From Candidatus Dojkabacteria bacterium (lineage in GTDB: Bacteria; Patescibacteriota; Dojkabacteria; GCA-002793355), in assembly GCA_030583825.1 (NCBI GenBank), contig CP129477.1:622491-686490 (forward strand): 64,000 nt of DNA, read 5' to 3'. Below the pieces are notes generated by a model. That model had not been told where the DNA came from and did no database searches. It saw only the letters and a list, made by a program, of their open reading frames with translations. Below, one piece after another: positions 15,053 through 60,053 of the stretch. The position numbers and the translations under genes are program-made. Numbering within the stretch: the stretch's first letter is position 1; each line of letters opens with the position of its first letter.

Positions 15053-15099
15053 AGCTCCTGTATTGTAACATGTTTTGCTAAGGGGAGGTATAATAGAAA

Positions 15100-16295: not shown

Positions 16296-16321
16296 TATGA
16301 GCGACGCGGTATAATTCCAAC
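16296..16321 (+). promoter_or_regulatory. Putative promoter of mscL (GCGGTATAATTCCAAC directly abutting the ATG, probably leaderless)
   Basis: TATAAT at 16310-16315, six nt before the ATG at 16322. The same GGTATAAT(TC) form recurs at the small-paralog array, rplJ and rpsA. Confidence 0.45.
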
Positions 16322-33545: not shown

Positions 33546-33648
33546 GCATTATACCCTGAAGTTGGAAAATAATGAACAAAACAGATAAAGAGTGAAATTC
33601 TCTCAGAAAGCTTGCGCAGTTCCCACTTCGATGATACAATCGTCACGT

Positions 33649-38466: not shown

Positions 38467-38596
38467 ACTGCCCGTATTATAAGCTCAGAATTGTGACTTG
38501 TAAAGAATTCCCGTATTAAGGGCATAAAGCTCTTTATAATTACACATGAGTAGTGAAGGGTTTTTAGAAACTCGAACGAGATAGTATAATCCCTGT

Positions 38597-39388: not shown

Positions 39389-40854
39389 TGATAAAAGAAC
39401 TGTCTCTTTTTAATACTCTCGGCAAAAAGAAAATGCCGTTTGTTCCAATAAATAAAGAGAAAGTAACCTTTTATTCATGTGGGCCAACAGTGTATGACTA
39501 CGCGCATATCGGTAACTTACGATATTTCACATTTGTAGATACATTGCGCCGTACTTTAGAATTCCTGGGCTACAATGTCGAGCATGTCATGAATATTACC
39601 GATGTAGGCCACCTTTCCGATGATGGAGACCTCGGCGAAGACAAAATGCTCCGCGGAGTTGAGCGTGAAAAAAAGAAACAGGGGAAAGAATTCACAGTAT
39701 GGGATCTCGCCCAATTTTACACAGATGCATTTATCGCAGATTCGCAAAAAATGAACTTTCTGCCGCCGCATCAACTAACGAAAGCAACACAGCATATTCA
39801 AGGAATGATTGACCTTATCCAGTCGCTTGTTGATCAAGGATATGCGTATAAAACGTCTAAAGCAGTATATTTTGATGTGACAAAGTTTGCTGATTACACG
39901 AAATTATCCGGCCAAAAGCTTGATGAAAAGCATGTCGGTGTCCGCGATGAAGTCGTTGTTGATGAAGAAAAGCACCATCCGGCAGACTTTCGCTTGTGGC
40001 AGCTTGATCAGCCTGACCATGCAATGCAGTGGGATTCACCGTGGGGAAAAGGGTTTCCGGGTTGGCACATTGAATGTTCTGCAATGGCGATGGAGTATCT
40101 TGGCGAAACATTAGATATTCATACTGGTGGAATTGATCATATTCCAGTGCACCACACAAATGAAATTGCCCAAAGTGAGGCCTCAACCGGCAAACAATTC
40201 GCAAACTACTGGCTTCACTCAGATTTTTTGCGTGTTGACGACGAAAAAATGGCAAAAAGTAAAGGAAATGCCTACAATTTATCTGATATTATGGCAAAAG
40301 GCTTTTCTGCGCTTGCATTACGCTTCTTTTATTTGAGTGCGCATTATAGAACTACGCTCAACTTTACCTGGGAAGCACTTGAAGGAGCACAATCTGCATA
40401 TGAAAATCTCTGGACGCAAGTAATGACGGCGCGAACACTTGTTGCGAAGACCAGTTATTCAGGGCAGAAAGCAGAAATAATAGACGAGGCTCGCCTTACT
40501 GAATACGTTCACAAATTTACAGACGCAATGCTTGACGATCTCAATACACCGCTTGCAATAGCGGTATTATGGGAAGTTATTAAGTCAGAGAGCACCCCAG
40601 CAACAAAGATAGCTTTTTTTGAAAAAGTTGAGTCTGTTATGGGATTATCGTTATTGTCAGCACCTACCCTGTATGATGATTCGTTTTTAGACAAAGCAAC
40701 GCAAACCGAAGTAATTGAAATGGTCATACAGCGCGATGAAGCAAAGGCCCAAAAAGACTATGAACTTTCGGATACTTTGAGAGAAAGTATCACAAAAAAG
40801 GGATTTATTGCGATTGATACTGTTGCCGGCACAATTGCCATTCCTTCTTTTTAG
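39388..40854 (+). CDS. cysS: Cysteine--tRNA ligase
   Basis: FYSCGPTVYDYAHIGNLRYF (HIGH region) and KMAKSKGN (KMSKS), with Cys-binding residues; its ATG overlaps the stop of the upstream gene. Confidence 0.9.
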   Translation: MIKELSLFNTLGKKKMPFVPINKEKVTFYSCGPTVYDYAHIGNLRYFTFVDTLRRTLEFLGYNVEHVMNITDVGHLSDDGDLGEDKMLRGVEREKKKQGKEFTVWDLAQFYTDAFIADSQKMNFLPPHQLTKATQHIQGMIDLIQSLVDQGYAYKTSKAVYFDVTKFADYTKLSGQKLDEKHVGVRDEVVVDEEKHHPADFRLWQLDQPDHAMQWDSPWGKGFPGWHIECSAMAMEYLGETLDIHTGGIDHIPVHHTNEIAQSEASTGKQFANYWLHSDFLRVDDEKMAKSKGNAYNLSDIMAKGFSALALRFFYLSAHYRTTLNFTWEALEGAQSAYENLWTQVMTARTLVAKTSYSGQKAEIIDEARLTEYVHKFTDAMLDDLNTPLAIAVLWEVIKSESTPATKIAFFEKVESVMGLSLLSAPTLYDDSFLDKATQTEVIEMVIQRDEAKAQKDYELSDTLRESITKKGFIAIDTVAGTIAIPSF

Positions 40855-40977
40855 TAGTGCTTATAGTAATTGAAAACTAAAGAGTGCCCCCAATTTGTGG
40901 GACATCCTATAGATATTGCGTGAGCTTGGTTCAGATGGTATAATCCATTTAAAAAACCAAACAAGGAGATTTTTTCC

Positions 40978-42168
40978 ATGGCAAAAGTAAGTACGGCGAA
41001 AGCTAAGAAAGCCGTGAAAGCGGACGTTCCAGCTATGTCGCCATTTGAGTCACAGATCGAACAGTCTTTGAGGACTTATAACCCATTAAAAGCAGGGGGA
41101 ATTGTTGAAGGAACAGTTATCAACAAAGAACCAGGTCTTTTGGTGGTTGACGTCGGAGGACGAAGCGAAGGTGTCATTAACGGTCGTGAACTTAAGAGCA
41201 AGGTCATTAACATCGAGGAAATTAAAATCGGTGACAAGATTCTTGTCTATGTTGTTTACCCGGAAAGTAAAGACGGTAGTCTTGTACTGTCACTTAAGCG
41301 AACCGAAGAAGTCAAAATCTGGCTTGATCTCGAAAAAGCATCCCGTAACGGTGATGTGCTTGATGCAACTGTTGTTGAAGTCAACACCGGTGGTGTCATT
41401 TGTGAACTTTTTGAAGGAGTTCGCGGTTTCATTCCAACCTCACAGCTTGATCCAAATCGAATCTTCGAAAGCGGAAAAAAGATGTATGGAAAGGATGTCA
41501 CTTCTGTTATTCAGCAGCGTTTGACTCAGCTTCTTGGCGAGCAAATTAAAGTCAAGATTATTGAGTTGGAGCGTGAAAGAAGCAGAATTATTCTTTCAGA
41601 AAAGTCTGTCACATTTGATACAGAGTCAGCAAGCAAAGAGAAGCTTCTCAAGAAGATAAAGGAAGGCGATATTCTCGATGGTAAAGTTACAGCAGTCACA
41701 CCATTCGGTATTTTCGTTAATACTCAAGGTCTTGAAGGTCTTGTTCACTTGTCTGAACTTTCATGGGACAAAGTTACTGACGTTGGTAAGCTTTACCAGG
41801 TTGGTGATGATGTTCAGGTTATGGTGCTCGAAATTAAGGAAGGGGGACGACGTATTGCATACAGCATTAAGCGACTTGTTAATGATCCGTGGCGTTCACG
41901 AATCAAGAAATATCAGGTTGGTGATGTTGTTGACGGCGTTGTTGAAGGTGTTGTTGAATATGGTGCATTCGTTAGAATTGACGAAGGTATCAACGGTTTA
42001 ATCCACATTTCAGAACTTTCTGATAAACTCGTGCGCAATCCTGCAGATATTGTGTCAGCAGGACAGAAGGTAAGCGTGATGATTCTCTCGATTTCCGAGA
42101 CAGAGCGTCACTTAAGCCTCAGCCTCAAGAGAGTGAAAGGCAACAAAAAATCTGACGATGAAGAATAA
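40978..42168 (+). CDS. rpsA: 30S ribosomal protein S1 (four S1 domains)
   Basis: Repeated S1 OB-folds (GTVINKEPGLLVVDVGG..., GKVTAVTPFGIFVNTQGLEGLVHLSEL..., GVVEGVVEYGAFVRIDEGINGLIHISEL...). The upstream promoter carries TGGTATAAT. Confidence 0.85.
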   Translation: MAKVSTAKAKKAVKADVPAMSPFESQIEQSLRTYNPLKAGGIVEGTVINKEPGLLVVDVGGRSEGVINGRELKSKVINIEEIKIGDKILVYVVYPESKDGSLVLSLKRTEEVKIWLDLEKASRNGDVLDATVVEVNTGGVICELFEGVRGFIPTSQLDPNRIFESGKKMYGKDVTSVIQQRLTQLLGEQIKVKIIELERERSRIILSEKSVTFDTESASKEKLLKKIKEGDILDGKVTAVTPFGIFVNTQGLEGLVHLSELSWDKVTDVGKLYQVGDDVQVMVLEIKEGGRRIAYSIKRLVNDPWRSRIKKYQVGDVVDGVVEGVVEYGAFVRIDEGINGLIHISELSDKLVRNPADIVSAGQKVSVMILSISETERHLSLSLKRVKGNKKSDDEE

Positions 42169-42192
42169 TTAACCATTCTTTTTCTGATGAAG

Positions 42193-42226
42193 AACACCCC
42201 GGGTAATACCGGGGTGTTTTGTTTTT
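42193..42226 (+). terminator. Intrinsic terminator after rpsA
   Basis: AACACCCCGG-GTAATA-CCGGGGTGTT hairpin followed by TTGTTTTTT. Confidence 0.75.
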
Positions 42227-42293
42227 TACGGCATAATGGCTGTTTTTATATTGCAATATAGACATTTAGCAATCAGATGCTATAATTGCTACT

Positions 42294-44864
42294 ATGAAAA
42301 GACAAGCACGCAAAGAATTTCTTGATATGCCTGTTTCCAGGTTCTCAGATCCTCTCTATTTTGCTCTGAAGAATGCCGAAAAAGCAGCAAAAATCTCGGG
42401 TGAAATAGAAATTACTCCGAAATTATTATTCGTAGGATTACTTCTTGATAAAGACTCACTCGCATTTTTCCTTTTAGACAAATTGAATATTGACTCGTCT
42501 GATGCAATTAAAAAGTTAACTGGCTATTCTGAGCAGAGAATTCTTGCAATCTCTGAGCGAAGCAAAAAAGCAAAAGTAACACTTTCAGTAGATGCAAAGC
42601 GACTCATTCTTGATGCAATGCGAATTGCACGCGAAGGAAAAGGATATTACGTTGGTACAGAGCATATTTTGCTTGCACTCCTTAAAAATCCTGAAAAAGA
42701 CCTCGCATTTCTTGCGGATATATCAGGTGTAGTTCAAGGAATGCCTAACTTTACGGGAGAAGTCCTGCGTGCAACTGTTTCTCCATTTGAAATGCTAAAG
42801 CAGGTTGAGACTGTGTTGCAGTCGCCGGCAAAGCCATTACCTCAGGCAGCACAGGAAGGCGTTGAAGGAGTATTGGCAATGTTTACTGAAATAATGACAG
42901 CAAAAAATCGCAGATTCCGCAGTACAGTGACCAAAAACGCAAGAAAAGATTACACAGATAAAATTTTTGGAAGCTTTTTACGTCAGACATATAAGAATGT
43001 ATTGCTTGTTGGCGCAAGCGGTATTGGAAAGTCTGCAGTTGTCGAAGAGCTCGCTCATCGCCTTATTACTGGTGATGCTCCATTGTCACTTCGTGAAAAA
43101 CAGCTACTAAAGATCAATATTCCAGCAATGATTGCAATGGCAAAGTTCCCCAATGAGCTCGATAAACAAGTATTAAACATTCTTAACGAGGCATATGGAG
43201 ATGATAGTGCGGTATTGTTCTTTGACGATATTCACACACTTATTGGAAGCCAAATGCGTGGTGGAATGAACATGGCAATGAGTATGAAACCGTTCTTAGA
43301 ATCAGGAGAAGTTAACATTATTGCAACGATGCCTGACGACGAATATCGTGCTCTTTCAGACTCTCAGCGAGGGTTTTTCCGTTATTTTACAGTAATCGAA
43401 ATGACTGAACCTTCTGAAGATGAGGCAGTTGCGATGATCAAAGATGAAGTAAAAGAACTCGAAAAGAAACATAAAGTAAAAATTGACGAAAACGCAGTTA
43501 AAGCAGCAGTATCTCTTGCAGATAGCTACTTGAACGAAAGAGTATTGCCCGATAAAGCTGTTGAATTACTCGACATTGCCGCAAGTAAGTATCACTTTGG
43601 TCATGAATACTCGTTAAAAAGTCTTGGAAAACTCATCGCAGAAGAAAACGAAATGAGAGAAACCAAAGAGCGTCTTATTGGAATGGGTGACTACGATGCA
43701 GCAGATGCCCTCCGCAAACGCGAGAAATTAATCCAAAAACGAATAAAAGAAGAGAGAAAGGCTATTGGGGTGAAAAAGACTCTTCCGCGCGTAAAAGAGC
43801 AGGATATTAAGAATCTGATTGCAGAGCTAACCAAATTGCCTGTTGCAACAATTACAAACAACGAAATGTCGGCGCTTGTAACACTTGAGGCATCTATTCG
43901 TTCAAAGATTATTTCCCAGGAAGACGCAATTAAGCGCGTTGTCAGTGCAGTAAAGCGTGGAAGAATTGGAATTTCAGATAAAAATCGTCCATGGGCAAGC
44001 TTGTTATTCTTAGGCCCGACCGGCGTAGGAAAAACAGAGTTAGCAAAAGTGTTGTCTCGATTGCTATTTGGTGATAACGAAGAACGCTTGATTCAGATTG
44101 ACATGAGTGAATTCATGGAACAGCACAGTGTTTCTAAGCTTATCGGCTCCCCTCCGGGGTATGTTGGTTTTGAACAGGGTGGCATGCTTAGCGAAAAGAT
44201 TATGGATAATCCGTATAGCGTGGTACTTTTCGATGAAATCGAAAAAGCTCATCCAGAAGTATTAAACATTCTTCTTCAGATTCTTGAAGATGGCCATTTG
44301 ACCGATTCACGAGGAAACAGAGTGAGTTTTCAGAACACAATCGTTATTTTGACCTCAAATATTGGTGCAGAAAAGATTGCAGAAGACAAAGTTCTCGGTT
44401 TTTATCGCGAAAGAACTAATGAAACCATGCCAACTCAGGATTATGAAGCAGTGAAAGACAGGCTTATGAAGGAGTTAAAGAAGCGATTGCGTCCGGAATT
44501 GATTAATCGTCTCGACGATGTTGTTATCTTTAAGTCGCTTACCAAAGATGATGCCTCTAAAGTGCTTGAAATTCTTGTTGCAGACCTCGCAAAGCGTATT
44601 GAACATTTGAAACTCTCTCTTCAGCTTGGTGAAAAGGCAAAGAAACAGCTTTTGCACGACGGATTCAGCAATGAATACGGTGCACGTCAGTTGCGAAGAA
44701 TGCTTCAACACGAAATTGAAGACTTAATTGCTGACCATGTGCTTGAAAAAGGCCTTCTTGATGCGCAGGAAGATACAAAGAAGCAAGAGGCGTTAGCGAT
44801 TGACTATGATAGCAGGAAAAAGCTGTACCAGATTATGGAAAGAGCTGCTGCAAAGAAAAAGTAG
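42294..44864 (+). CDS. Clp/Hsp100-family AAA+ ATPase (ClpC/ClpB-like) with two nucleotide-binding domains
   Basis: N-terminal Clp_N repeats; D1 Walker A GASGIGKSAVVEELAHRL; D2 Walker A FLGPTGVGKTELAKVLS; sensor-2 GARQLRR; 856 aa. The putative -10 GCTATAAT lies 7 nt before the ATG, suggesting a leaderless transcript. Confidence 0.8.
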   Translation: MKRQARKEFLDMPVSRFSDPLYFALKNAEKAAKISGEIEITPKLLFVGLLLDKDSLAFFLLDKLNIDSSDAIKKLTGYSEQRILAISERSKKAKVTLSVDAKRLILDAMRIAREGKGYYVGTEHILLALLKNPEKDLAFLADISGVVQGMPNFTGEVLRATVSPFEMLKQVETVLQSPAKPLPQAAQEGVEGVLAMFTEIMTAKNRRFRSTVTKNARKDYTDKIFGSFLRQTYKNVLLVGASGIGKSAVVEELAHRLITGDAPLSLREKQLLKINIPAMIAMAKFPNELDKQVLNILNEAYGDDSAVLFFDDIHTLIGSQMRGGMNMAMSMKPFLESGEVNIIATMPDDEYRALSDSQRGFFRYFTVIEMTEPSEDEAVAMIKDEVKELEKKHKVKIDENAVKAAVSLADSYLNERVLPDKAVELLDIAASKYHFGHEYSLKSLGKLIAEENEMRETKERLIGMGDYDAADALRKREKLIQKRIKEERKAIGVKKTLPRVKEQDIKNLIAELTKLPVATITNNEMSALVTLEASIRSKIISQEDAIKRVVSAVKRGRIGISDKNRPWASLLFLGPTGVGKTELAKVLSRLLFGDNEERLIQIDMSEFMEQHSVSKLIGSPPGYVGFEQGGMLSEKIMDNPYSVVLFDEIEKAHPEVLNILLQILEDGHLTDSRGNRVSFQNTIVILTSNIGAEKIAEDKVLGFYRERTNETMPTQDYEAVKDRLMKELKKRLRPELINRLDDVVIFKSLTKDDASKVLEILVADLAKRIEHLKLSLQLGEKAKKQLLHDGFSNEYGARQLRRMLQHEIEDLIADHVLEKGLLDAQEDTKKQEALAIDYDSRKKLYQIMERAAAKKK

Positions 44865-44926
44865 CATGATAACTCCCAATATATTGGATCTATCGTAAAA
44901 TCATATTTCTCGCGATATAATTGTGT

Positions 44927-46240
44927 ATGTACGTATGCCGAAACTGCGGATATGCCGCAGCAAAATGGAGTGGAAAATGTCCAAACTGTGGAGAGTGGGG
45001 AACACTTGACGAGTCAAATATGCCTGTAAAAAAGAAAGCAGGGAAAGTATTACAGCCGGTATATGGCGCGGATCTCGTAAAAGCAGCAACGATTCCTGAA
45101 TCAAAGCTGGAAAAACTCTCAACTGGTTTTACTGAAATAGACCGAATTTTAGGTGGTGGAATTGCACGAGGAGCTGTTACTCTTGTTGGTGGTGATCCTG
45201 GTATTGGGAAATCCACGTTATTATTACAGGTTCTCGCGTATATTGCATCGGAAGGGCATACTGTAGCGTATATCTCTGGTGAAGAATCACTTGCACAGCT
45301 TTCCTCACGACTAAAGCGATTACTCTCTAAAATCCCTGATACTTTGCTTATGGGAACAGATACCGATCTTGAATCAGTGGTAGGAAGCCTTTCTCGTCAA
45401 AAGCTCGACTTTGTTGTTATTGACTCAATCCATTCTCTCACAGATGCAAATACAGAAGGAACATATGGAGGAATTAGCCAATTGAAAATGGTTACAAGTT
45501 CTCTTACGCAATGGGCAAAAAAGAACGATACAGGTATGTTTCTCGTTGGCCAAGTAACAAAAGAAGGGTATGTCGCCGGCCCAAAGAATGTAGAGCATAT
45601 TGTTGATACCGTTATGTATATTGAGCGCCTTGGCGACGAAAATATTCGTTTAGTCCGCACAGTAAAAAACAGGTTTGGGGAAGTCGGGGAGGTCGGATTT
45701 TTGAAAATGGCAGGCAAGGGATTGGAAGATAAAACTGATTTCAGTCGAATGCTTGTGGAAGAAAGCGCTGTGTCGCTTCCTGGTGGAGCTTTGGGGATTA
45801 CATTACAAGGAAGTCGTCCAATTATGGTGCATTTACAAGTCCTTACTAATGACACAATGTTTGCAGTTCCACGACGGGTTGTAGACGGAATCTCGAAAAA
45901 TAAAGTTGAAGTACTTGCTGCTGTGATTGCAAAAAAGCTTCCAAAGCTTTATTTAGACAAAAAAGATATATTTATTAAGGCAAATGGAGGAATTTCACTG
46001 AAAGATCCTGGCATTGACCTAGCAATCATCGGTGCAATTCTTTCGTCTGTGTTGAATGTATCATTTGAAACAACAGTTTTTATTGGGGAAGTAGGTCTTC
46101 AAGGTGAAATTAAGGCATGCGCGGGATTCGATGCTCGCCTAAAAGAAGCAAAGAAGCTTGGATTTACAAATATCGTTACTTATAAAACCGTTTCTCATAT
46201 CTCAGAGATTCTGGAATTCTTAAAGAAGAAAGTTTCATAG
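44927..46240 (+). CDS. radA: DNA repair protein RadA/Sms
   Basis: Zn finger CRNCGYAAAKWSGKCPNCGEWG, RecA-like Walker A GGDPGIGKSTLLLQV, KNRFG motif and a C-terminal Lon-protease-like domain. Confidence 0.9.
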   Translation: MYVCRNCGYAAAKWSGKCPNCGEWGTLDESNMPVKKKAGKVLQPVYGADLVKAATIPESKLEKLSTGFTEIDRILGGGIARGAVTLVGGDPGIGKSTLLLQVLAYIASEGHTVAYISGEESLAQLSSRLKRLLSKIPDTLLMGTDTDLESVVGSLSRQKLDFVVIDSIHSLTDANTEGTYGGISQLKMVTSSLTQWAKKNDTGMFLVGQVTKEGYVAGPKNVEHIVDTVMYIERLGDENIRLVRTVKNRFGEVGEVGFLKMAGKGLEDKTDFSRMLVEESAVSLPGGALGITLQGSRPIMVHLQVLTNDTMFAVPRRVVDGISKNKVEVLAAVIAKKLPKLYLDKKDIFIKANGGISLKDPGIDLAIIGAILSSVLNVSFETTVFIGEVGLQGEIKACAGFDARLKEAKKLGFTNIVTYKTVSHISEILEFLKKKVS

Positions 46241-46385
46241 CGGAACCATTCTGTCGCATACCGTATTATCGCTGTTTTAATGCTATGTTCCACGAATCGT
46301 GTCCTTCTGGTGGTTTCGACTCACAAATATTTCTCATAGACCACAAGGTTACGTTAAAGGTCTTTTTCCCGATAGATACAGGCAG

Positions 46386-46415
46386 TTGACATTATTCTGA
46401 ATATTTAGTTATAAT
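46386..46415 (+). promoter_or_regulatory. Consensus sigma-70-type promoter P1 (TTGACA, 18-nt spacer, TATAAT)
   Basis: TTGACA at 46386-46391 and TATAAT at 46410-46415. Confidence 0.6.
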
Positions 46416-46457
46416 ACTACAGGTTTGATAGAAAGAAACTATAAACCAAAGCAACTA

Positions 46458-46486
46458 TTGACAATCATAGTCTGAGTAGGTATAAT
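46458..46486 (+). promoter_or_regulatory. Consensus sigma-70-type promoter P2 (TTGACA, 17-nt spacer, TATAAT)
   Basis: TTGACA at 46458-46463 and TATAAT at 46481-46486; both hexamers perfect with optimal spacing. Confidence 0.65.
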
Positions 46487-46632
46487 ACTCTTACAATCGC
46501 AGACTTTTCCCTGGGTTTGGAACTATCTGAGCCCAAGGAAAAGCTCTGTGAGAGATTTAGAAAGACATTAGAAACCTGATGTTTTACTAAAGGGATCGGT
46601 CTGGGGCAGTGCCGATCCCCTCTCCGTTTTTT
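46487..46632 (+). ncRNA. Putative ~140-nt small RNA (or structured rho leader segment) bounded by P2 and a terminator-like hairpin plus T-run
   Basis: No ORF. The segment ends with GGGATCGG...CCGATCCC...TTTTTT at 46592-46632 and is followed by a separate rho promoter-like TTGCAT-16-TACAAT. Confidence 0.35.
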
Positions 46633-46826
46633 AAACAAAAACAATCACACTTTAATAACAATCAAACGTTGGAAACTTCATACTTGCATTTTTCCTCAAA
46701 ATATTTACAATGAAATAACTATCCCCGTCGTGGATATATTCAACCTCACAAATTCACATTTAATTATGTCGAAACCAAATCAACCGCAATGCGCGGAAGA
46801 GAAATTAAGTTAATGTCCTTTTATTC

Positions 46827-48092
46827 ATGTTTACTGCACAAAAATTAGCCGAAGATACGGTTGCAAACTTACTGAAAGTTGCTGTCGAAATTGGCGGCAA
46901 AGAGAAAGCAAAAGAGCTTGAAAAATTTCAAAAACCAGAACTAATCAAATTTATTCTCGAAGAGTCAGCAAAGAAAGATGGCTATGAATATGCCGGTGGA
47001 ACTCTCGAAATTATGAATGGCGGTGCACACGGCTTTTTACGAGTTGATGGAGTACTTCCAAGCCAAGGAGATGTTTATGTTTCTGGCACTCAAATTCAAA
47101 AATTCCATTTACGAACAGGTGATGTCGTTGAAGGTGTTGTCCGCAAGTCAAAAGAAAGCGAAAAATATCGAAACATGCTTAAAGTTGATTTCGTTGGTGG
47201 GCATCCTGCAGCAGACGTATTAAAGCGACAGCCATTTGAAAAGAAAACTCCAATTTTCCCAAATAGACAAATAAAGCTTGAGACTACCTCAGATATTCTC
47301 TCGACACGTATGATTGATATGCTTTCTCCAATTGGATTTGGACAGCGTGGTATGATCGTTGCTCCTCCAAAAGCGGGTAAAACCTGGCTTTTGAAGGATA
47401 TTGCAAACGGTATCACTGCAAACAATCCAAATGCAAAGCTTATGATCATTCTTGTTGGTGAGCGTCCTGAAGAAGTCACAGACATTCGTCGCTCGGTAAA
47501 TGGAGAAGTGATTGCATCGAACTTCGATGAAACTCCAGAAAATAACACAAAAGTCGCAGAAATGGGACTTGAAAAAGCAAAACGAATGGTAGAGTGGGGT
47601 GAAGATGTCATTATCCTTATGGATAGCATCACACGTCTTGCACGATCATATAACCTTGTGGTTCCAAGCTCAGGCCGAACACTTTCAGGTGGTTTTGACC
47701 CAGTTGCATTGTATCCTCCAAAGAAATTCTTTGGTGCTGCACGTAACTGCGAAGAGGGTGGAAGCTTAACAATCCTCGCAACTGCATTGATTAACACAGG
47801 TAGCCGTATGGATGACCTCATTTATGAGGAATTCAAAGGTACCGGTAACATGGAGCTTCATCTTGACAGAAGTCTTGCAGAGCGACGTGTCTATCCATCT
47901 ATTGATGTTACAAAATCAGGTACTCGACGTGAAGACTTGCTTCTTGATCCTTCTATGCTTCAGATGTCATGGTTACTCCGAAAGATGCTTGATACTCTTG
48001 AAAAGAACAACGAAAATCCAGCAGAAGTGCTTGTTGAAAGAATGAAAACTTCAAAGAGCAATATGGATTTCTTGAAGAACTTGAGAGCGTAG
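46827..48092 (+). CDS. rho: Transcription termination factor Rho
   Basis: N-terminal RNA-binding/CSD region, Walker A (GQRGMIVAPPKAGKTWLLKDIA), Q-loop and R-loop, catalytic C-terminus; 421 aa. Confidence 0.9.
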   Translation: MFTAQKLAEDTVANLLKVAVEIGGKEKAKELEKFQKPELIKFILEESAKKDGYEYAGGTLEIMNGGAHGFLRVDGVLPSQGDVYVSGTQIQKFHLRTGDVVEGVVRKSKESEKYRNMLKVDFVGGHPAADVLKRQPFEKKTPIFPNRQIKLETTSDILSTRMIDMLSPIGFGQRGMIVAPPKAGKTWLLKDIANGITANNPNAKLMIILVGERPEEVTDIRRSVNGEVIASNFDETPENNTKVAEMGLEKAKRMVEWGEDVIILMDSITRLARSYNLVVPSSGRTLSGGFDPVALYPPKKFFGAARNCEEGGSLTILATALINTGSRMDDLIYEEFKGTGNMELHLDRSLAERRVYPSIDVTKSGTRREDLLLDPSMLQMSWLLRKMLDTLEKNNENPAEVLVERMKTSKSNMDFLKNLRA

Positions 48093-48132
48093 CTTTTATT
48101 CCCCTCATAGGGCAATTGTCCAAGCGAGTTTA

Positions 48133-48163
48133 TTGAATACTATCCTATAATGCGGTATAATTC
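48133..48163 (+). promoter_or_regulatory. Promoter of small paralog A (TTGAAT, 17-nt spacer, TATAAT within GGTATAATTC)
   Basis: TTGAAT at 48133-48138 and TATAAT at 48156-48161. The same GGTATAATTC -10 form lies upstream of paralogs B (48656-48665) and C (49135-49144). Confidence 0.55.
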
Positions 48164-48210
48164 ACTATCAACAATTATGTTGAATCGCTCATATTCATAG
48201 GAGTTTTCTC

Positions 48211-48543
48211 ATGGGAAAGAAAGTTACCGTTAAACAGGGTGAACAGCTTGTCTTGTTAATGACGTGCCAGAATTTAGAAGTAACATTAGCAGGTGACCAT
48301 CAAAGCGATGTTTCCCAGTTTGGTGAAGTCAGCTATGATGTTGATGAATGGAATGATTGGACTTATCTTTCTCCCTTTGAAGGGAAAGAACTACATATTT
48401 CTGATTTGCCAACTATCCCGTTTGGAATTTATTTCCACGATGTTGGGGAAGAATTCACTATACGGTTTACTCCGACTAAAGAAATGACTGTTCTAGTAGA
48501 AAGTATTGATGTTGGAACTATTCCACTTTCTACGCTAGATTAG
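48211..48543 (+). CDS. Small hypothetical protein, paralog A of a four-gene tandem family
   Basis: 110 aa with RBS AGGAG. Shares the N-terminal pattern KKVTVKQGEQ...LEVTLAG and the C-terminal motif (TIPLSTLD) with the three downstream genes. Confidence 0.6.
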   Translation: MGKKVTVKQGEQLVLLMTCQNLEVTLAGDHQSDVSQFGEVSYDVDEWNDWTYLSPFEGKELHISDLPTIPFGIYFHDVGEEFTIRFTPTKEMTVLVESIDVGTIPLSTLD

Positions 48544-48697
48544 TCTATATGAGTTACGCTGGGGAGAAAACAGTTGCATCTTCGAATACAGAAGTTTTTT
48601 CCCTTGCCTAACACCTTTTTTCAATTAAAACTCTCTCTTTATATCTTATAGTTGTGGTATAATTCTTGGACGTTCGATCATCTAGGAGCACGTGTAT

Positions 48698-49015
48698 ATG
48701 CTGAAGATTCAGGTGGGAAAGAATACGCCAAGTTTCGCACGGACTGTCGTTGTTAAAGCTACCAGCGCTGGGAAGCTTGTTATCCTGGCGGATGAAGAGG
48801 AGGTATCAATATCAGACGCGTCATCTAACATTGAAACAGTCATTACTGGCACGAATCCCACAGGAGTTTTGGTAAACGGAGTGAAGTATGACTCTGTTAT
48901 TGTTGTCACTAATACAGGGATGACAGAATTCTCTTGGTCGGTAAATTTTGGGCAACGGTACTATAACGAAAAGCTTCCAATCACCATAACACCTATGGCT
49001 ATGTCCAATGATTGA
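48698..49015 (+). CDS. Small hypothetical protein, paralog B
   Basis: MLKIQVGKNTPSFARTVVVKA... and C-terminal KLPITITPMAM. RBS AGGAG 9 nt upstream, own promoter TGGTATAATTC, own terminator downstream. Confidence 0.6.
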   Translation: MLKIQVGKNTPSFARTVVVKATSAGKLVILADEEEVSISDASSNIETVITGTNPTGVLVNGVKYDSVIVVTNTGMTEFSWSVNFGQRYYNEKLPITITPMAMSND

Positions 49016-49176
49016 AGAACGCCGGCAGGGCAGAGTATATAACACAATACATCCCTGCAGGCTTTTTTCCTTTTCGAATGTTAACTTTATGTAGTCAGTT
49101 CTCCCCATATTTCTTTACTTTGTACGTATTATAGGGTATAATTCGAGAGTGTTTTTTAGCGAAAGGAACGTAGAAA

Positions 49177-49473
49177 GTGGTACTTGAAGTGCAAATTGGC
49201 GAAGGTAACCCCTTCACGGTAGAAACAGTCTTTGTTGAGGGTGAAGACGATGTAGTTACGCGCCTCTTCATTGATGATGAAGAACTTGTTCCTGAGTTTC
49301 CAGTTCGTGTTCATGTTCGAGCTTTTGGCGGAATCCAAACCTCCAATGCGGGCAATCATGACGAAATGACTGTGTACTTAGGTATCCACCAAATGCCCGA
49401 TGCGGCGTATTTCAAGGATGGGATAGCCAGCCAGAAAGTTCGCAATTTCCCCGTTGAAATCACCGCGCTATGA
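49177..49473 (+). CDS. Small hypothetical protein, paralog C (GTG start)
   Basis: VLEVQIGEGNPFTVETVFVEG... clearly aligns with paralog B's LKIQVGKNTPSFARTVVVKA; C-terminal NFPVEITAL. Confidence 0.6.
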   Translation: MVLEVQIGEGNPFTVETVFVEGEDDVVTRLFIDDEELVPEFPVRVHVRAFGGIQTSNAGNHDEMTVYLGIHQMPDAAYFKDGIASQKVRNFPVEITAL

Positions 49474-49648
49474 CCGACCCTAAAAACTAAAAAACTTTTT
49501 ATGAACCAGCCGGGATATCCCAAATGAAAATATATCCCCGCTGGTTTTTCCTTTTATTTTCCTCTAGAAATTCGCAAACACCTTTATTTATTCCGCATTA
49601 TAGGATACAATACTATATCGCACATTGTATAGCTTGGAGTTCATTATC

Positions 49649-49978
49649 ATGTTAGTGAAGTTGGTAGTAAAGAACGGTGACAGCACCAAAGTAATCTTGA
49701 CCCCCAAAGTTGAGATTGATGCAGAGTGGAATATTCTCGCACACGTCCCTGTAGAAATAGAAGGGTATACAAGCATAGAAATTCATAATGCTTCGGGTAA
49801 CCTTAGAGAAGTGAGACTCTCTTTTGGTGAACGTTCTGTGTCCTGCATCTGGGCAACTATCTATCTCAATAAGCCCGGAAACTATATATTCTTTTTTCCA
49901 CCGAGAGATAGTGGCATCCCGACCCCAGAGTGGTTTATTTACACAAAAGAACTTCCTCTCACTATCACCGCGTCCTAA
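49649..49978 (+). CDS. Small hypothetical protein, paralog D
   Basis: MLVKLVVKNGDSTKVILTPKVE... with C-terminal ELPLTITAS. Preceded by a terminator (CCAGCCGGGATAT...ATATCCCCGCTGGTTTTT) and a -10 TACAAT. Confidence 0.55.
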   Translation: MLVKLVVKNGDSTKVILTPKVEIDAEWNILAHVPVEIEGYTSIEIHNASGNLREVRLSFGERSVSCIWATIYLNKPGNYIFFFPPRDSGIPTPEWFIYTKELPLTITAS

Positions 49979-50254
49979 ACATCCATTAATCCCCAGCAGG
50001 GAAAAATTTCTCATAATTTGCAACCTCCCTGCCGGTATACCCCTTAGACTTTCAGAAACTTCTCCCTCAATATCCTTTCCAATTTTGTCTCGATCAAACA
50101 AAACTCACGACAAAACTCTCTTTACACTTCACCTGTTCGCTCTCCAACTCATAAAATAGATATATCCTAGAGGAAAATATCTTGTTCACACTACAATACT
50201 CAATTTCAACATACAAAATTTGCGGGGGAATGCTCATGCTGTTATACTGTCTCC

Positions 50255-51760
50255 ATGATGTATCTACGCCCCAAGAAGTTAGATATCTTTGGTGACAAAA
50301 CGTCCCTAGAAATCTATATCAATAAAGAAACTGCCGATCAATCCGGTATTAAAGAGGGAGACCTCATTGATTTATCCTTTGCAACACTTGAAACAGGCGC
50401 AATTGCCGTTCTTACTGACACTCTTGTAGACGTCAGCGAAGTCGGTCTACCTGCCAGCTTGTGGACAGTTCATCCTGTTTCTTCGGAAGAATTAGTCGCA
50501 CTCGATGTTCAGGGTCAGGCAAAATCTATTCACTATATTCGAAAAAAGATTCTCGGTCAGCCATTAAACTACGAAGAAATTCGTGAAATTATGTACGACA
50601 TTGCAAAGCGACGTCTTTCACCTGTTGAAATGACATATTTCGCGTCAGCATCGTATAGTCCTGGGTTTTCAGAAGAAGAAATGCATTTTCTTACTAAAGG
50701 AATGGCAGAAACCGGAACAATCATGGACTTCAAAAAGATGGGTGAGTTTGTCGTTGATAAGCACTCGATTGGAGGATTGCCATCAAAAGGTGTGACTCCT
50801 GTATTAGTATCGCTTATGGCGTCACTCGGATTCATTATTCCTAACACAAGCACTCGAGCAATTACGTCTCCAGCGGGAACGTCTGACGTTCTTGAAACGA
50901 TGATGCCGGTTGATCTTACAGAACATGAAATCTACGATGTCGTAGGCAAAACAAACGGATGTTTAGTATGGGGTGGAGGTCTTGATCTTGCTCCTGCAGA
51001 CGACATTCTTATTCAGATTGAACGGCCATTGCATGTGGAATCGTATGACAAATTCATTGTTAGTATTATTGCCAAAAAGATAGCAACAGGAATTACACAT
51101 TTGATTCTTGATATCCCGTATGGAACAGGTACAAAAGTCCCTGATGCAGATGTTCCAGTTGTTGCTGGCGCATTTGAAAAGCTCTGTGCAAAGTTTGGTA
51201 TTAAAGTATTTGTATACAAGCGAACTTCTCGAGGAGTAGATGGAAACGGTATTGGGCCAGTATTGGAAGCACGAGATGTTTTATGGGTTCTGGAAAGAGA
51301 TAGTCGCCGACCAGTTGGTCTTGAAAATATCACACTTGATATGGCTGCACGCCTTATCGAAATTACCGGAAAACATACATACGAAGAAGCATTTAAACTC
51401 CTGCGTGAGCAGCTTGAGTCAAAGAAAGCATTGAAAAAGTTCTGGGAAATGGCCCGTGCACAGGGGGCGCAAGTAGAAATGAAAGGTGACGATATGATCC
51501 CAGGAAGCTATACATTTGACGTTGTAGCGCCAAAGTCAGGCACAATTGATCGCTATGATCCTCATGCAATCGTTGTTCTTACTAAAGCATTGGGAGCACC
51601 ATATGTTAAAAAAGCAGGAATTTATATTCGTCATCAACCGGGAGATTCTGTTAAAGAGGGCGATATTATCGCAACATTACACGCCGAAAGCGCAAATCGT
51701 TTGGCACTTGCAAAGCGAGTATTAGAAGAACAGAAAGAGAAGTTAGTGAGCTTTTCCTGA
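50255..51760 (+). CDS. AMP phosphorylase / thymidine-phosphorylase-family nucleoside phosphorylase (archaeal-type DeoA, ~500 aa with an extra N-terminal domain)
   Basis: DKHSIGGLPSKGVTPVLVSLMASLG...TSTRAITSPAGTSDVLE corresponds to the TP-family phosphate/glycosyl-binding core. The N-terminal LRPKKLDIFGDKTSLEIYINKETADQSGIKEGDLIDL and the 501-aa length resemble AMP phosphorylases rather than ~440-aa thymidine phosphorylases. Confidence 0.65.
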   Translation: MMYLRPKKLDIFGDKTSLEIYINKETADQSGIKEGDLIDLSFATLETGAIAVLTDTLVDVSEVGLPASLWTVHPVSSEELVALDVQGQAKSIHYIRKKILGQPLNYEEIREIMYDIAKRRLSPVEMTYFASASYSPGFSEEEMHFLTKGMAETGTIMDFKKMGEFVVDKHSIGGLPSKGVTPVLVSLMASLGFIIPNTSTRAITSPAGTSDVLETMMPVDLTEHEIYDVVGKTNGCLVWGGGLDLAPADDILIQIERPLHVESYDKFIVSIIAKKIATGITHLILDIPYGTGTKVPDADVPVVAGAFEKLCAKFGIKVFVYKRTSRGVDGNGIGPVLEARDVLWVLERDSRRPVGLENITLDMAARLIEITGKHTYEEAFKLLREQLESKKALKKFWEMARAQGAQVEMKGDDMIPGSYTFDVVAPKSGTIDRYDPHAIVVLTKALGAPYVKKAGIYIRHQPGDSVKEGDIIATLHAESANRLALAKRVLEEQKEKLVSFS

Positions 51761-51920
51761 TAGTAAGGACTTTGAAGAAAAAGCGGAACCGAGCAAAAAG
51801 ATAACTGACGTTATGTTTTGCGAAGGAGGTTAGAAGGCAATACAAAATCGTATGAAAGTGTAAGTGTAAAAAATAGAGAATAAGTACTAAAAAAAATTTA
51901 ATTTTGATCGGTAAAGGGAA

Positions 51921-55502: not shown

Positions 55503-58500
55503 ATGAATCAGGGAAATGCCCCGCTGATCGCTGATCGAGCAAAATCAGTCTTCAGCTTTCTCATGAAACTATTGCTCATCGTTGTGATTATCTTTTTAAT
55601 TCTATGGTTTACAGGCCAGGGATCTGGACGTGAACAGCAGACTACGGGAGATAATGGCTCAGGCGATGGACAATCATTTACCTCAGGAGAAGTTAACAAC
55701 AATAACAACCAAGGATTAATTCCGGGTTTGAACGTTATTCGTGAAATTATCGCTCCTGATTTGCAATTCGCAAACCAAAACCAACTTTTCTGTTCAACAA
55801 ACAATATTACCAATACAACAATTGGTGGGCCAAATAACTACTTTAACGATGCGTATATTACAAATGTAAATGCAGATTCGCTCAATATTGATCCATACAC
55901 AATTAACAGTAATGGAATCACCAATACCAACGGTGGAGATATTAGACTTAATAACAATACAGTTATTTCAGGTGGATTATCAGTAACAAGTGGAAATATA
56001 AGTATCACGGGCAATCTTGTGAATTTTCCTGTTAACCCAGCCCATTTTGCAATTAGCACAGGTGTTCTTAACCTTGCAGATCCATACGCAACAGGTGCTG
56101 CATACGATTATCGTTTCTTCCCGCTAAATGGAACTTTAGACGATATTTCAAACGTTAATGCCCCTTCGCCAACAAGCGGTCAGGCATTGGTATGGAATGG
56201 AAGCGCATGGGTAGCACAAAATGTTGCTGCAGCAATCACAGGCTCAAACGGTATTACAGTATCGGGTGGAACAGACGTTCGACTTGGTGGAGCATTAAAT
56301 ACACCAACAACTGTTACTCAAGCTGGAAATACAATGACATTCAGCGGTGGAGCATTTGTCGTATCATCAGGCTCAAATGCAATCACCTTTAACACAGGTG
56401 TTGGACATCAGGTTAACCTTAATGGTTACTTCTCAGTTCGGAATAATTCTGGTGCAGATTCTATTGTTATTAATGGTGTTGAGTATTTCTTTCCTAATGC
56501 TGACGGAGCTTCCGGAGACTCTCTTATTACAGACGGCTCAGGAAACTTAGCATGGGGCCCTGCAAGTGCAGACGCAACAAACGGTTTACATGTTGATACC
56601 GGAGAAGTCAGACTCGGAGGATCACTTATCGAAAACACATATATTGATCAAGATGGATACGGCTTAGAGCTTTCAAATGGTTACTTCAGAGTTGATGCAG
56701 CATACGACAACCAGAATATTGACCTCTTTGGCTATGAAACTCTTGCAAGAGGAGAAAACTACCTTCGCTTGTACAGTAATAACGTACTTGAAATGACATC
56801 TGTAGGCTCAATGTATGTTGATGCTTTCAACCTTGAAATGACCACGGATGATTATTTAAATATTCGTTCTGATAACGCTTCGATAAATATCGAGGCGCCA
56901 AACGGAAACGTAGATGTGTATTCATGGGATTCAATCAACCTTGAAGCAGGGTATTACATCAACTCATACTCTGAGTACACTGACCTTTATACAGTTTACG
57001 ATTTTAATGTTACTGCCGGGTCTGGAAATCTTTACCTCCGCTCAAACAACTATGACGTAGAAATTAATGCGTTTAATGGTGGCTTTTATGGAAATTCTCA
57101 GTATATGGGGCTGTATGCAGATACAGGCTATATGATTAACTCAAATAACGGTTCCGGTCAGATTCAAGGATTCTGGGGCGTTGAGATGTATTCCGACAAT
57201 GGAGAAGTGAATATTGAAAACTATGTTCAGATCGAAGATTATTACATCACCATTTCGGGTGTTACGTACTACTGGCCATTCAGCGATGGATCATCAGGAC
57301 AACAGCTTACAACTGACGGTGCTGGTGGCTTATCATGGGAAAATGCCGGAGGCGGTGGTGGCGGCGGAGGCGGTGTCGGCGGAGCTGACAACGGTCTTCA
57401 TATGGATGGCGACCTTGTATATCTTGGAGGTTACCTTGTTGAGCACACAGATGTAAACCTCGACTTTGACTATCGTCTGAACTTTGTAAACGGAAATGTT
57501 GGTTTCGGAAACGATCTTCCAGTCGATCCAGATGAGCGTGACAGAATTACTGTCGCAGAAGGTGGTATCAATGTTATTAACCCAACAGAATTCCGACATC
57601 TTGGAGACTGGGGTAATGGCGGTGACTTCCAGGGGATCGAATATAAAGACAAATACGTTTATATTCGTGCACCAAACTATCGAGAAATCTTTATCGTTGA
57701 CGTGAGCAACAAAACAAATCCACAGCATATTGCAACGTGGACATTGCCTGATTGGGAAGATAACTATGAGCCTATGGGTTTGAAAGTTCGCGGAGACTAC
57801 ATGTACGTTTTGGCAATTAACTGGACAGATGAAGACTTACTTTACATTGTTGATATCAGAAGTCCAAGTAATCCAGCACTTATGACAACTCTGACATTAA
57901 ACACTTTCTCGGATGCTGGCCCAGGAATGAAGTTTGGAGAAATGGAAATTTCAGGAGATAGAATTTATGTTCCTTCGTATGTAAGTTCTGGATCACAAAT
58001 TGACGTATGGAACATTGTAAATCCAAGTCAGCCAAGATTTTGTACAACAATCGGTGTAAATAATCGAGTAGATATTGCAGCAATTAAAGTCCTTGGAGAA
58101 AAAGTATATTGGTCAACAAGTGATTGGGGAGATGGTGAAGTTGGTATTGCACAAGTAAGTTCATGTGGTGTTGGTGCATCAAGCTATACAAGCGGCCCAG
58201 GTAACAGAATGTATCGAGGTATTGATGTTACTGGACGATTCCTCTATGCCACTCGTGAAGATGGAAACTTAGATGTGTTCGAAGTTGATGACTTGAATAA
58301 CATTAACTATTACTCATCAGTATTTATTGGAGATTTACCTCGTCAGATTAAAATTGTCGGACGATATGCATACATTTCAACGACTGACGGCGGAACAATG
58401 AAAATTGTCGATATTCGTGATCCTGCAAACCCATCATGGATAGATAATGTCAATATTGATGATAACTGGACAGATTGGGTTATTGATTTTGAAATTGTTG

Positions 58501-60053
58501 GAGACTACATGTACGCAGTGCGAGGATTACAAGCTCTTTGGATTTGGGATCTTCGTGGTGGTAAATTTAACACGATGTCTGCAGGCGATCTTGCAACAGA
58601 CTATCTCCGGGTTGAAAACTACTTTAGCGTGACAAACGATGGACGATTCGGAGGAAACGTTAGCGTTGACCAAGACCTATCAATCACGGGAGAAGCACGA
58701 TTTAATACGCGACTTGTGTCTGGAAACTGTACAACAGCATCACTCGGTATTGTACTCTGTGATACTTTTGGAACACTTCGAAGTCACTTGAACACAATTT
58801 CAGGTGGAAACAGCTTTATGCTCGACAATGTCGTTGTCGGTGACTTTAGCCCGCTTGGAAGCGCACGATTAACAGCAGTTCACACAACAGGATTACCAAT
58901 GGCAGTCGCACGAGCAACAAATGGTACCTTAATGGGATTCTACCTTGGTGTCTCTCAGGAAGGCTCTATTACAGTATCAGGAACAACAGTATCGTATAAC
59001 GCATTCACTGGTTCGCACTACGCATATATTGATACAGACCCTGCAGAAACAATGGAAGTAGGAGAAGTTGTTCGATTAACTGGAAACAATAAGAATTTAC
59101 ACAACAATGCTGCTTCGGAAATCCTTTATGGAGTAGAGTCAAGCAAATATGAAAACGATCCACGAGTGCTTGGAGCATACCTCGCATTGCAGGATCCAAT
59201 TGAAGTTGAATCAGAAAGCAATCCTCATCTCGTAATGGCAACCGGTAACGGTGTCATGTGGGTTGAAGAAGGCGATGGAACAAATCTCCAGCCAGGAGAT
59301 TACTTGATCTCTTCACAGATTTCAGGTCATGCAAAGCTGGATCCACGAAGTCATTCAGTCAGCTACGTTATTGCAAGAGTTGCAGAGCCAGTTGATTGGA
59401 GCTCGGTAACACAAACAGTTACAGAAGGTTTGGAAACAAAGAAAAGAAAGTTAGTTTCAGTCTTTTACGAAAGCTTTGCTCGCGATAACGGAATTATGAT
59501 TGCATTGTCAGCAAGCGGATGGGCAGTAACCGGCGAAGATAAAATCCAAACTGGATATAGCGTTATTGCACCGAAAATTGTAAGCACAGTTGGTGAATTC
59601 AGCTTGCTCTCTGCAAAAGCATTTACAATTAACGAAGGAAACCTCGTTATTGACCAGGATGGAAACCTTACAACCGTTGGATCACTTACCGCACCGAAAG
59701 GCTCTATTCAGGAACTTGCAGTCAACAGTTTGAAAGCACTTGGTGGAGGAATCACAGTCTCACTTGGCAACGGAGAATCATTTGCAATCGTAAATAACTC
59801 TAACGAAGTAGTGCTTGGAGTTTCAAGCTCAGGAGAACTTCGTGCAGACAAAGCTGCCGGTACAGGAACAATTGCAGCAGGTCAAACAGAAGTAACAATT
59901 GCAAACTCAGTTGCAAAGAGTGGCTCACGAATCATCGTAACGCCGCAGGGTAACGCTCGAGTGTATGTAAAACAGAAAGCTAATGGCTCATTTGTGGTTG
60001 CGGTAGATAGTGCAGGCGCAGCAGTGGACTTTGACTATCTAATAGTAAACTAA
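55503..60053 (+). CDS. Giant (1516 aa) membrane-anchored surface protein with an LVIVD-type beta-propeller region, a duplicated tail-fibre-like motif and a poly-Gly tract
   Basis: N-terminal TM LMKLLLIVVIIFLILWFTG. At least seven LVIVD-like repeats, for example KYVYIRAPNYREIFIVDVSNKTNPQHI, GDYMYVLAINWTDEDLLYIVDIRSPSNP and GRYAYISTTDGGTMKIVDIRDPANP. Two copies of Y(F/Y)(F/W)P..DG.SG..L.TDG.G.L.W, and G9VGG. Confidence 0.75.
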   Translation: MNQGNAPLIADRAKSVFSFLMKLLLIVVIIFLILWFTGQGSGREQQTTGDNGSGDGQSFTSGEVNNNNNQGLIPGLNVIREIIAPDLQFANQNQLFCSTNNITNTTIGGPNNYFNDAYITNVNADSLNIDPYTINSNGITNTNGGDIRLNNNTVISGGLSVTSGNISITGNLVNFPVNPAHFAISTGVLNLADPYATGAAYDYRFFPLNGTLDDISNVNAPSPTSGQALVWNGSAWVAQNVAAAITGSNGITVSGGTDVRLGGALNTPTTVTQAGNTMTFSGGAFVVSSGSNAITFNTGVGHQVNLNGYFSVRNNSGADSIVINGVEYFFPNADGASGDSLITDGSGNLAWGPASADATNGLHVDTGEVRLGGSLIENTYIDQDGYGLELSNGYFRVDAAYDNQNIDLFGYETLARGENYLRLYSNNVLEMTSVGSMYVDAFNLEMTTDDYLNIRSDNASINIEAPNGNVDVYSWDSINLEAGYYINSYSEYTDLYTVYDFNVTAGSGNLYLRSNNYDVEINAFNGGFYGNSQYMGLYADTGYMINSNNGSGQIQGFWGVEMYSDNGEVNIENYVQIEDYYITISGVTYYWPFSDGSSGQQLTTDGAGGLSWENAGGGGGGGGGVGGADNGLHMDGDLVYLGGYLVEHTDVNLDFDYRLNFVNGNVGFGNDLPVDPDERDRITVAEGGINVINPTEFRHLGDWGNGGDFQGIEYKDKYVYIRAPNYREIFIVDVSNKTNPQHIATWTLPDWEDNYEPMGLKVRGDYMYVLAINWTDEDLLYIVDIRSPSNPALMTTLTLNTFSDAGPGMKFGEMEISGDRIYVPSYVSSGSQIDVWNIVNPSQPRFCTTIGVNNRVDIAAIKVLGEKVYWSTSDWGDGEVGIAQVSSCGVGASSYTSGPGNRMYRGIDVTGRFLYATREDGNLDVFEVDDLNNINYYSSVFIGDLPRQIKIVGRYAYISTTDGGTMKIVDIRDPANPSWIDNVNIDDNWTDWVIDFEIVGDYMYAVRGLQALWIWDLRGGKFNTMSAGDLATDYLRVENYFSVTNDGRFGGNVSVDQDLSITGEARFNTRLVSGNCTTASLGIVLCDTFGTLRSHLNTISGGNSFMLDNVVVGDFSPLGSARLTAVHTTGLPMAVARATNGTLMGFYLGVSQEGSITVSGTTVSYNAFTGSHYAYIDTDPAETMEVGEVVRLTGNNKNLHNNAASEILYGVESSKYENDPRVLGAYLALQDPIEVESESNPHLVMATGNGVMWVEEGDGTNLQPGDYLISSQISGHAKLDPRSHSVSYVIARVAEPVDWSSVTQTVTEGLETKKRKLVSVFYESFARDNGIMIALSASGWAVTGEDKIQTGYSVIAPKIVSTVGEFSLLSAKAFTINEGNLVIDQDGNLTTVGSLTAPKGSIQELAVNSLKALGGGITVSLGNGESFAIVNNSNEVVLGVSSSGELRADKAAGTGTIAAGQTEVTIANSVAKSGSRIIVTPQGNARVYVKQKANGSFVVAVDSAGAAVDFDYLIVN

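Follow-up and report, generated by a model that had tools for sequence, protein, structure and literature searches.

The 64,000-nucleotide stretch of DNA analysed here (the window) corresponds to positions 622,491 to 686,490 of contig CP129477.1 (assembly GCA_030583825.1), from the closed 1.09-Mb metagenome-assembled genome of a Candidatus Dojkabacteria bacterium, which belongs to the Candidate Phyla Radiation (CPR, or Patescibacteria). An array of four small genes, referred to as A, B, C and D, begins directly downstream of the stop codon of rho and is followed by a gene resembling nucleoside/AMP phosphorylases (Table 1); in the public record, the four are listed as hypothetical proteins WKZ29764-67. 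A first-pass annotation had drawn attention to four + strand genes placed immediately after rho. Their strand and position were confirmed, as was the guess of a CPR bacterium as the source, and their products were found to comprise 110, 105, 98 and 109 amino acids (aa) rather than the 110, 106, 98 and 110 aa originally given. The array spans 2.16 kb, of which approximately 40% is non-coding. Genomes of the CPR are of small size and tightly packed with genes, and orphan small genes are common in them; the presence of such a stretch within a dense genome suggests that the four orphan genes are used. With moderate confidence, the locus is read here as a lineage-specific cluster of four small genes (98-110 aa) having the anatomy and origin set out below.

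Judged from their sequences, the four open reading frames (ORFs) are real genes. In 2000 shuffles that preserved dinucleotide frequencies, a single strand of the 2.16 kb never yielded as many as four non-overlapping ORFs with 98 codons or more (on average 0.24 and at most 2), and an independent gene caller gave the identical four calls in the Logan assemblies. Each start codon is preceded by a Shine-Dalgarno sequence (AGGAG, AAGGA or GGAG) 7-9 nucleotides (nt) to its 5' side, and the distances between promoter and start codon are regular across the array. When scored for codon usage, the annotated frame was the best of the six, and the sole positive one, for all four genes. The scores of A, B, C and D (0.22, 0.16, 0.19 and 0.06 bits per codon, respectively) compare with 0.34 +/- 0.10 for native 100-codon chunks, among which A falls in the lowest 10%, B at 3.6%, C at 6.6% and D at 0.7%. 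A minus-strand ORF of 149 aa (49652-50101), considered as an alternative to D, was rejected with a codon score of -0.14. At third codon positions, B, C and D have a GC content (GC3) of 0.44-0.45 as opposed to 0.33 for the genome, a value of 0.44 or above being attained by only 0.7% of native 100-codon chunks, and this atypical composition suggests that the three genes are foreign or young in evolutionary terms.

The genes appear to be equipped individually for transcription. A sigma-70-type promoter and a Shine-Dalgarno sequence were recognized at each of the four, as the first-pass annotation had proposed, and the intrinsic terminators which it placed upstream of B, C and D correspond to hairpins followed by U-runs after A, B and C. 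A simple terminator scan missed these three hairpins because their loops exceed 8 nt; with that after C, 0 of 200 shuffles folded as well. Given that the genes have their own promoters and hairpins, four separately transcribed monocistronic units are a reasonable prediction. The sequence GGTATAATTC is found 5' of A, B and C (at 48154, 48656 and 49135), while D instead carries GATACAAT. The earlier description of a shared -10 form in three promoters thus holds for A, B and C, with A also having TTGAAT at -35, but the form is not unusual: GGTATAAT is present in 10 copies in the window, where 1.6 would be expected. Of these, the seven outside the array each lie just 5' of another gene, rho included, and the form is the ordinary -10 box of this Dojkabacteria genome. 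A TATA[AG] box situated 1-5 nt 5' of the -10 element is present in 4/4 array promoters and in 0/7 of the other GGTATAAT promoters.

Table 1. Coordinates of the array genes, their putative expression signals and the flanking genes (positions within the window)
Feature	Position	Strand	Remarks
rho	46827..48092	+	421 aa; upstream flank; PF07497 and PF00006 matches; 80% identity to Rho of locus L097
Promoter of A	48133..48161	+	TTGAAT, 17-nt spacer, TATAAT within TGCGGTATAATTC; second TATAAT 4 nt upstream
Gene A	48211..48543	+	110 aa; isoelectric point (pI) 4.3, net charge -13; AGGAG 7 nt upstream; kinship to B-D not established
Hairpin with U-run after A (terminator-like)	48553..48621	+	-20.4 kcal/mol, z = -3.05
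Promoter of B	48647..48665	+	TATAGT-TGTGGTATAATTC; poor -35
Gene B	48698..49015	+	105 aa from ATG (107 aa from GTG at 48692); AGGAG 9 nt upstream; C-terminal LPITITP
Terminator (predicted) after B	49021..49068	+	9-bp interrupted stem, U6; -18.2 kcal/mol, z = -2.3
Promoter of C	49114..49144	+	TTTACT, 17-nt spacer, TATAAT within ATTATAGGGTATAATTC
Gene C	49177..49473	+	98 aa, GTG start; pI 4.35, net charge -11; C-terminal FPVEITA
Terminator (predicted) after C	49503..49555	+	15-bp stem (14/15 paired), then UUUUUCCUUUU; -20.5 kcal/mol, z = -3.6; inverted repeat
Promoter of D	49583..49611	+	TTTATT, 17-nt spacer, TACAAT within ATTATAGGATACAAT; weakest compared with the other three
Gene D	49649..49978	+	109 aa; GGAG 9 nt upstream; C-terminal LPLTITA; lowest codon score of the four
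Hairpin after D	49993..50035	+	no U-run; z = -1.5; weak as a terminator
Retained ancestral promoter region of downstream gene	50190..50211	+	CTACAATAC...CAACAT; aligns with promoter region of the L097 homologue
Nucleoside/AMP-phosphorylase-like gene	50255..51760	+	501 aa; downstream flank; PF02885, PF00591 and PF07831 matches

Alignment of the encoded proteins supports the notion of B, C and D as paralogues that have diverged greatly, coding identity among the copies being approximately 20-28%. In global alignments, the observed score was reached in 0 (B-C), 5 (B-D) and 2 (C-D) of 3000 shuffles, and when the three were compared with 2071 real-protein chunks, each of 105 aa with its first residue forced to Met, p values ranged from <=0.0005 up to 0.004. 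With local alignment, only B-C was significant, its Smith-Waterman score of 48 being attained in 2 of 3000 shuffles and lying above those of all 738 real-protein chunks for C. B, C and D each end with the motif [LF]P[IVL][TE]IT[PA], and these are its sole matches in 2.2 million six-frame residues from the window and 82 related loci. This C-terminal motif had been ascribed to all four proteins; A lacks it and has FTIRFTP instead, located 22 residues before its end.

Likenesses were also detected in the expression signals. The -10 boxes follow one another along the array at intervals of 502, 479 and 469 nt. The promoters of A and B are similar over 24 nt (z = 4.5; 4/1000 shuffles), while those of C and D share 77% identity over 30 nt, the top value of all promoter pairs. 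The terminators of B and C, compared over the 3' arm and tail, have 29 nt in common, AATA(C/T)ATCCC(T/C)GC(A/T)GG..TTTTTCCTTTT (z = 6.2; 0/1000 shuffles), and the window contains no other site with this motif. Such likeness between neighbouring promoters and terminators fits a tandem duplication of the promoter-gene-terminator unit as a whole. Hence, we infer that a promoter-ORF-terminator unit of approximately 470-500 bp was duplicated in tandem, giving rise to B, C and D at the least and possibly also to A. The coding parts would then have diverged to their present identity, with portions of the expression signals remaining recognisably alike.

The restriction of the array to one lineage was revealed by comparison of gene order. 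In the closest relative found, locus L097, Rho and the product of the downstream gene share 80 and 70% identity, respectively, with their counterparts in the window, and the genes are arranged in the same order, clp-radA-rho-phosphorylase-RNase. There, the phosphorylase-like gene lies directly 3' of rho with a spacer of 96 nt, as it does with a spacer of 89 nt in a second relative, L017 (69 and 63% identity, respectively). Since rho is joined to the phosphorylase-like gene in these two closest relatives, the 2.1-kb array is lineage-specific, and because the ancestral promoter of the downstream gene is retained in the window (Table 1), the extra DNA is confined to the interval from the stop codon of rho to that promoter. 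At 25 other loci, mostly of Dojkabacteria, rho is followed directly by an M23/LysM peptidase gene (the window copy of which is at 53543); the phosphorylase-RNase pair between rho and this peptidase gene was found only in this sub-lineage (L017, L097 and L098). The last of these, a more distant relative, has a gene for a 194-aa multi-pass membrane protein (L098 5328-5912) between rho and the phosphorylase-like gene, an insert which indicates that the junction after rho took up different insertions in different lineages.

No relatives of the four proteins were found by database searching. A profile of all four, searched against 5.8 billion protein clusters, recovered only the four themselves, an exhaustive phmmer search of 1.84 billion representatives with B returned B alone, and single-sequence searches with A and D yielded the queries only; C was covered in the large protein-cluster searches through the four-sequence profile only. 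Scans of Pfam and NCBIfam at E-values up to 1-10 gave only noise, so that immunity families were likewise unmatched, and the best E-value with PHROGs (0.011) was also at the level of noise. PADLOC, which covers defence proteins only, gave no match, and searches of PDB sequences returned nothing below E = 0.046. Neither a blastn comparison of the array DNA with phages and plasmids nor tblastn of A-D against the 82 related loci gave a match; when phages were searched by tblastn with A, C and D, a single match with E = 1 resulted, scans of IMG/VR with each protein found no relative, and the array region is without a family match in Rfam. A, B, C and D are orphan genes with no detectable homologue outside the lineage and represent an undescribed family, in accord with the original suggestion of a new small-protein family.

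The four proteins are acidic (pI 4.3-5.6), have at most one cysteine each, and, as stated earlier, lack a transmembrane segment; no hydrophobic segment was found in any of them (maximum 19-residue Kyte-Doolittle mean of 1.26). They are probably soluble, cytoplasmic and all-beta. AlphaFold2 modelling of B alone (predicted local distance difference test [pLDDT] 49, predicted template modelling score 0.44) and of D with the four-sequence alignment (pLDDT 43) gave models too poor to use, both having beta strands only at low confidence. At these scores, the small beta-sandwich that had been anticipated could not be confirmed, and a Foldseek search of PDB with the low-confidence model of B produced nothing below E = 0.076, only generic immunoglobulin-like chains. 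Domains of the CarboxypepD_reg/transthyretin-like type resemble A-D in being approximately 80-100 residues long and all-beta (as predicted for A-D), and weak local matches were observed between B and D (z = 3.8 and 5.2, respectively) and a CarboxypepD_reg domain formed by residues 928-1031 of the protein encoded at 1160-4255. An identity as CarboxypepD_reg (PF13620) was rejected, with no Pfam match and at most 0.5 bits from a local four-domain hidden Markov model (HMM), and the lead was dropped, the weak matches being ascribed to chance, because different parts of B and D align to the one segment, which contradicts the B-D alignment.

Several results weigh against the reading of a lineage-specific array derived from one duplicated unit. 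When A was compared with the others, A-D gave p = 0.016, and A-B and A-C were not significant; with hhalign, the combination of B, C and D against A gave P = 0.07, and that of B and C against D aligned only the 12-residue C-terminal motif (P = 0.016). Leave-one-out HMMs recognised 0/4 proteins, which places the family deep in the twilight zone. The first-pass view of all four proteins as clearly related is thus too strong: relatedness is supported for B-C, B-D and C-D (p ~0.0005-0.004) and is not supported for A. The likenesses of promoters and terminators are short, and in part they could reflect convergence on a functional consensus. The overall GC content of the block is that of the genome, leaving GC3 as the sole basis for inferring a foreign origin. 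In addition, the 16 public Logan contigs that carry any array gene are all 100% identical to the window, and consequently, the ratio of nonsynonymous to synonymous substitution is not measurable. Four of these contigs span the whole array, each with all four genes, and the variation in copy number between strains which the first-pass annotation had suggested looking for was not seen. The identity extends over the locus 38211-51813 (L001-L016), for up to 13.6 kb and across about a dozen runs with SRR, DRR and ERR prefixes; this suggests one clonal population, widely sampled.

As to function, the four proteins may work on their own as binders or decoys in an accessory, fast-evolving interaction with a phage, host or competitor. 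Their small size and acidity, the lack of enzyme-like features, the separate expression signals and the fast divergence would all fit such proteins; nonetheless, a conflict-related function, rather than one as enzymes or housekeeping factors, is speculative and considered rather unlikely. Less probable again would be a newly born and rapidly diversifying acidic beta family confined to this Dojkabacteria lineage, each copy being insulated by a promoter and, in three cases, a terminator, in which selection would have kept the signals while driving the coding sequences apart, e.g., as decoys or inhibitors directed at different phage or host targets. If true, the array would be a conflict cassette that is chromosomal and non-mobile, of a type so far undescribed among CPR bacteria. 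The first-pass annotation had favoured immunity proteins or anti-defence factors, for which no positive evidence was obtained, there being no toxin, phage or plasmid neighbour and no database match; its remark that no partner toxin is evident was borne out for all genes within 10 kb on either side.

A related proposal is that the array is cargo of an unsampled CPR phage or mobile element, namely an anti-defence, superinfection-exclusion or orphan-immunity cassette that has lost its mobility genes. DNA-mimic anti-restriction proteins are strongly acidic, as are A (-13) and C (-11), and both the atypical GC3 of B, C and D and the lack of the block at the same junction in relatives are compatible with such an arrival. 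Tandem, fast-diverging small paralogues are known, moreover, from strings of immunity genes, e.g., esaG and tsaI (PMC9484751). However, the neighbours out to 10 kb in both directions are housekeeping genes, with no toxin, secretion-system, integrase, phage or plasmid gene among them, and no transposase, mobile-element gene, tRNA target or flanking repeat that might mark a boundary is present. The promoters are of the host consensus type, the GC content of the block is that of the genome, and neither PHROGs, PADLOC and IMG/VR nor the phage and plasmid data provided a match; the likelihood of this origin is accordingly put low. Small orphans on one strand, with an imperfect, large-looped inverted repeat behind each of them, would also fit an integron-type array of cassettes or an attC cluster that has no integrase. 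This possibility is effectively refuted: no RYYYAAC...GTTRRRY pair at a spacing of 50-150 nt exists on either strand between 48000 and 50300, the hairpins resemble terminators in having U-runs behind them, a consensus promoter precedes each gene whereas cassettes are promoterless, and there is no integrase among the neighbours, which are housekeeping genes instead.

It has also to be considered whether the four have any common origin, as they may be unrelated young or de novo orphans that settled in a permissive spacer after rho and that resemble each other only through beta composition and convergent signals. The negative leave-one-out HMMs and the restriction of significant local alignment to B-C would be expected in this case, B and D score as well against the CarboxypepD_reg domain as against each other, the profile of GC content at the three codon positions (GC1/GC2/GC3) is flat in B and D, and the variable junction after rho harbours the 194-aa membrane-protein gene in L098. 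Set against these points are the global, colinear similarity of B, C and D, which exceeds the real-protein nulls, the seven-residue C-terminal motif that they share and that occurs nowhere else in the 2.2 million residues, and the regular unit length coupled with an array-specific likeness of promoters and terminators that goes beyond consensus; independent origins are hence thought improbable. That the ORFs are untranslated, and represent either small RNAs or non-functional DNA with chance open frames, is very improbable. Codon scores of 0.06-0.22 are indeed below the genome mean of 0.34, and neither a homologue nor a sign of constraint was found, but the excess of long ORFs over shuffled sequence, the superiority of the annotated frame in 4/4 genes, the placement of the Shine-Dalgarno sequences and the regular distances from promoter to start all speak for translation, and a match in Rfam is absent.

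The array, read as a lineage-specific cluster with duplicated units, may be compared with three kinds of known systems. It resembles the orphan clusters of reduced CPR genomes in consisting of small hypothetical genes, confined to one lineage, that lie amid housekeeping genes and are missing from the syntenic site in relatives. It differs from them in that three or four genes form a regular tandem array, in which every unit is provided with a promoter and three units also with a terminator, approximately 40% of the 2.16 kb being non-coding. Anti-defence clusters of phages and mobile elements (anti-CRISPR, anti-restriction) likewise bring together small, often acidic and fast-evolving orphans, unrelated or distantly related, side by side, and they are usually operonic and accompanied by a helix-turn-helix regulator. 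Whereas such clusters reside in phages, plasmids or islands, the present array is in the core chromosome, with promoters of the host consensus and one terminator per gene. The strings of esaG and tsaI immunity genes associated with the type VII secretion system are similarly composed of tandem, same-strand, small cytoplasmic and non-identical paralogues (PMC9484751). In contrast to the array, where there is neither an adjacent toxin or secretion gene nor a match to an immunity family, they adjoin polymorphic toxin genes. Homologous recombination has been described in these strings (PMC9484751), for which the identity of ~20-28% within the array is too low, and the array shows no variation in copy number among the 16 identical contigs. 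Lineage-specific genes are candidates for the means by which episymbiotic bacteria handle their hosts and phages, and the locus may be a neat case in which a promoter-gene-terminator unit was duplicated and its coding sequence diverged almost beyond recognition. At the same time, the family is so far restricted to one clonal population, and its contribution is hardly more than a further four hypothetical proteins.

The neighbourhood of the array, taken as 10 kb to its left and right, includes genes for a ClpC-like protein, RadA, Rho, the phosphorylase-like protein, a beta-CASP RNase, the M23/LysM peptidase and an LVIVD-repeat protein. The spacer 5' of rho (46241-46826) is unusually long at 586 nt and is without a family match in Rfam. 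It contains a consensus promoter at 46479, which implies for rho a leader of approximately 340 nt that could perhaps serve its autoregulation. The spacer that follows D (49979-50254; 276 nt) is strongly C-rich on the + strand, with GC skew down to -0.45; it holds the hairpin without a U-run, and its 3' part retains the downstream gene's ancestral promoter. The ends of five contigs coincide exactly with 51813, in an A-rich spacer between the phosphorylase-like and beta-CASP RNase genes.

At several positions in the window (15087-15100, 16308-16322, 33545-33555 on the - strand, and 50240-50257), a consensus -10 box ends 5-8 nt before a start codon. The phosphorylase-like gene has this short layout, as does its homologue in L097 (L097 5985-6003). 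With -10 boxes only 5-8 nt from the starts, leaderless mRNAs seem to be common in the Dojkabacteria genome; the array genes are unlike this layout, having leaders of 30-45 nt with Shine-Dalgarno sites.

An IF-2B-family gene, ribose-1,5-bisphosphate-isomerase-like, is located at 60097-61041, ~8 kb from the phosphorylase-like gene at 50255-51760. AMP/thymidine-phosphorylase-like and IF-2B-family genes both belong to the nucleoside-salvage/RubisCO pathway described for Dojkabacteria (PMC5113843). Finally, the window encodes four very large proteins (1160-4255, 4882-8337, 8445-10757 and 55503-60053), which are probably surface or host-interaction proteins. Those at 1160-4255 and 4882-8337 contain CarboxypepD_reg/transthyretin-like beta-sandwich domains, accompanied in the former by long hydrophobic stretches; among the four, RCC1 repeats occur together with a Listeria-Bacteroides repeat in one, and LVIVD repeats in another.

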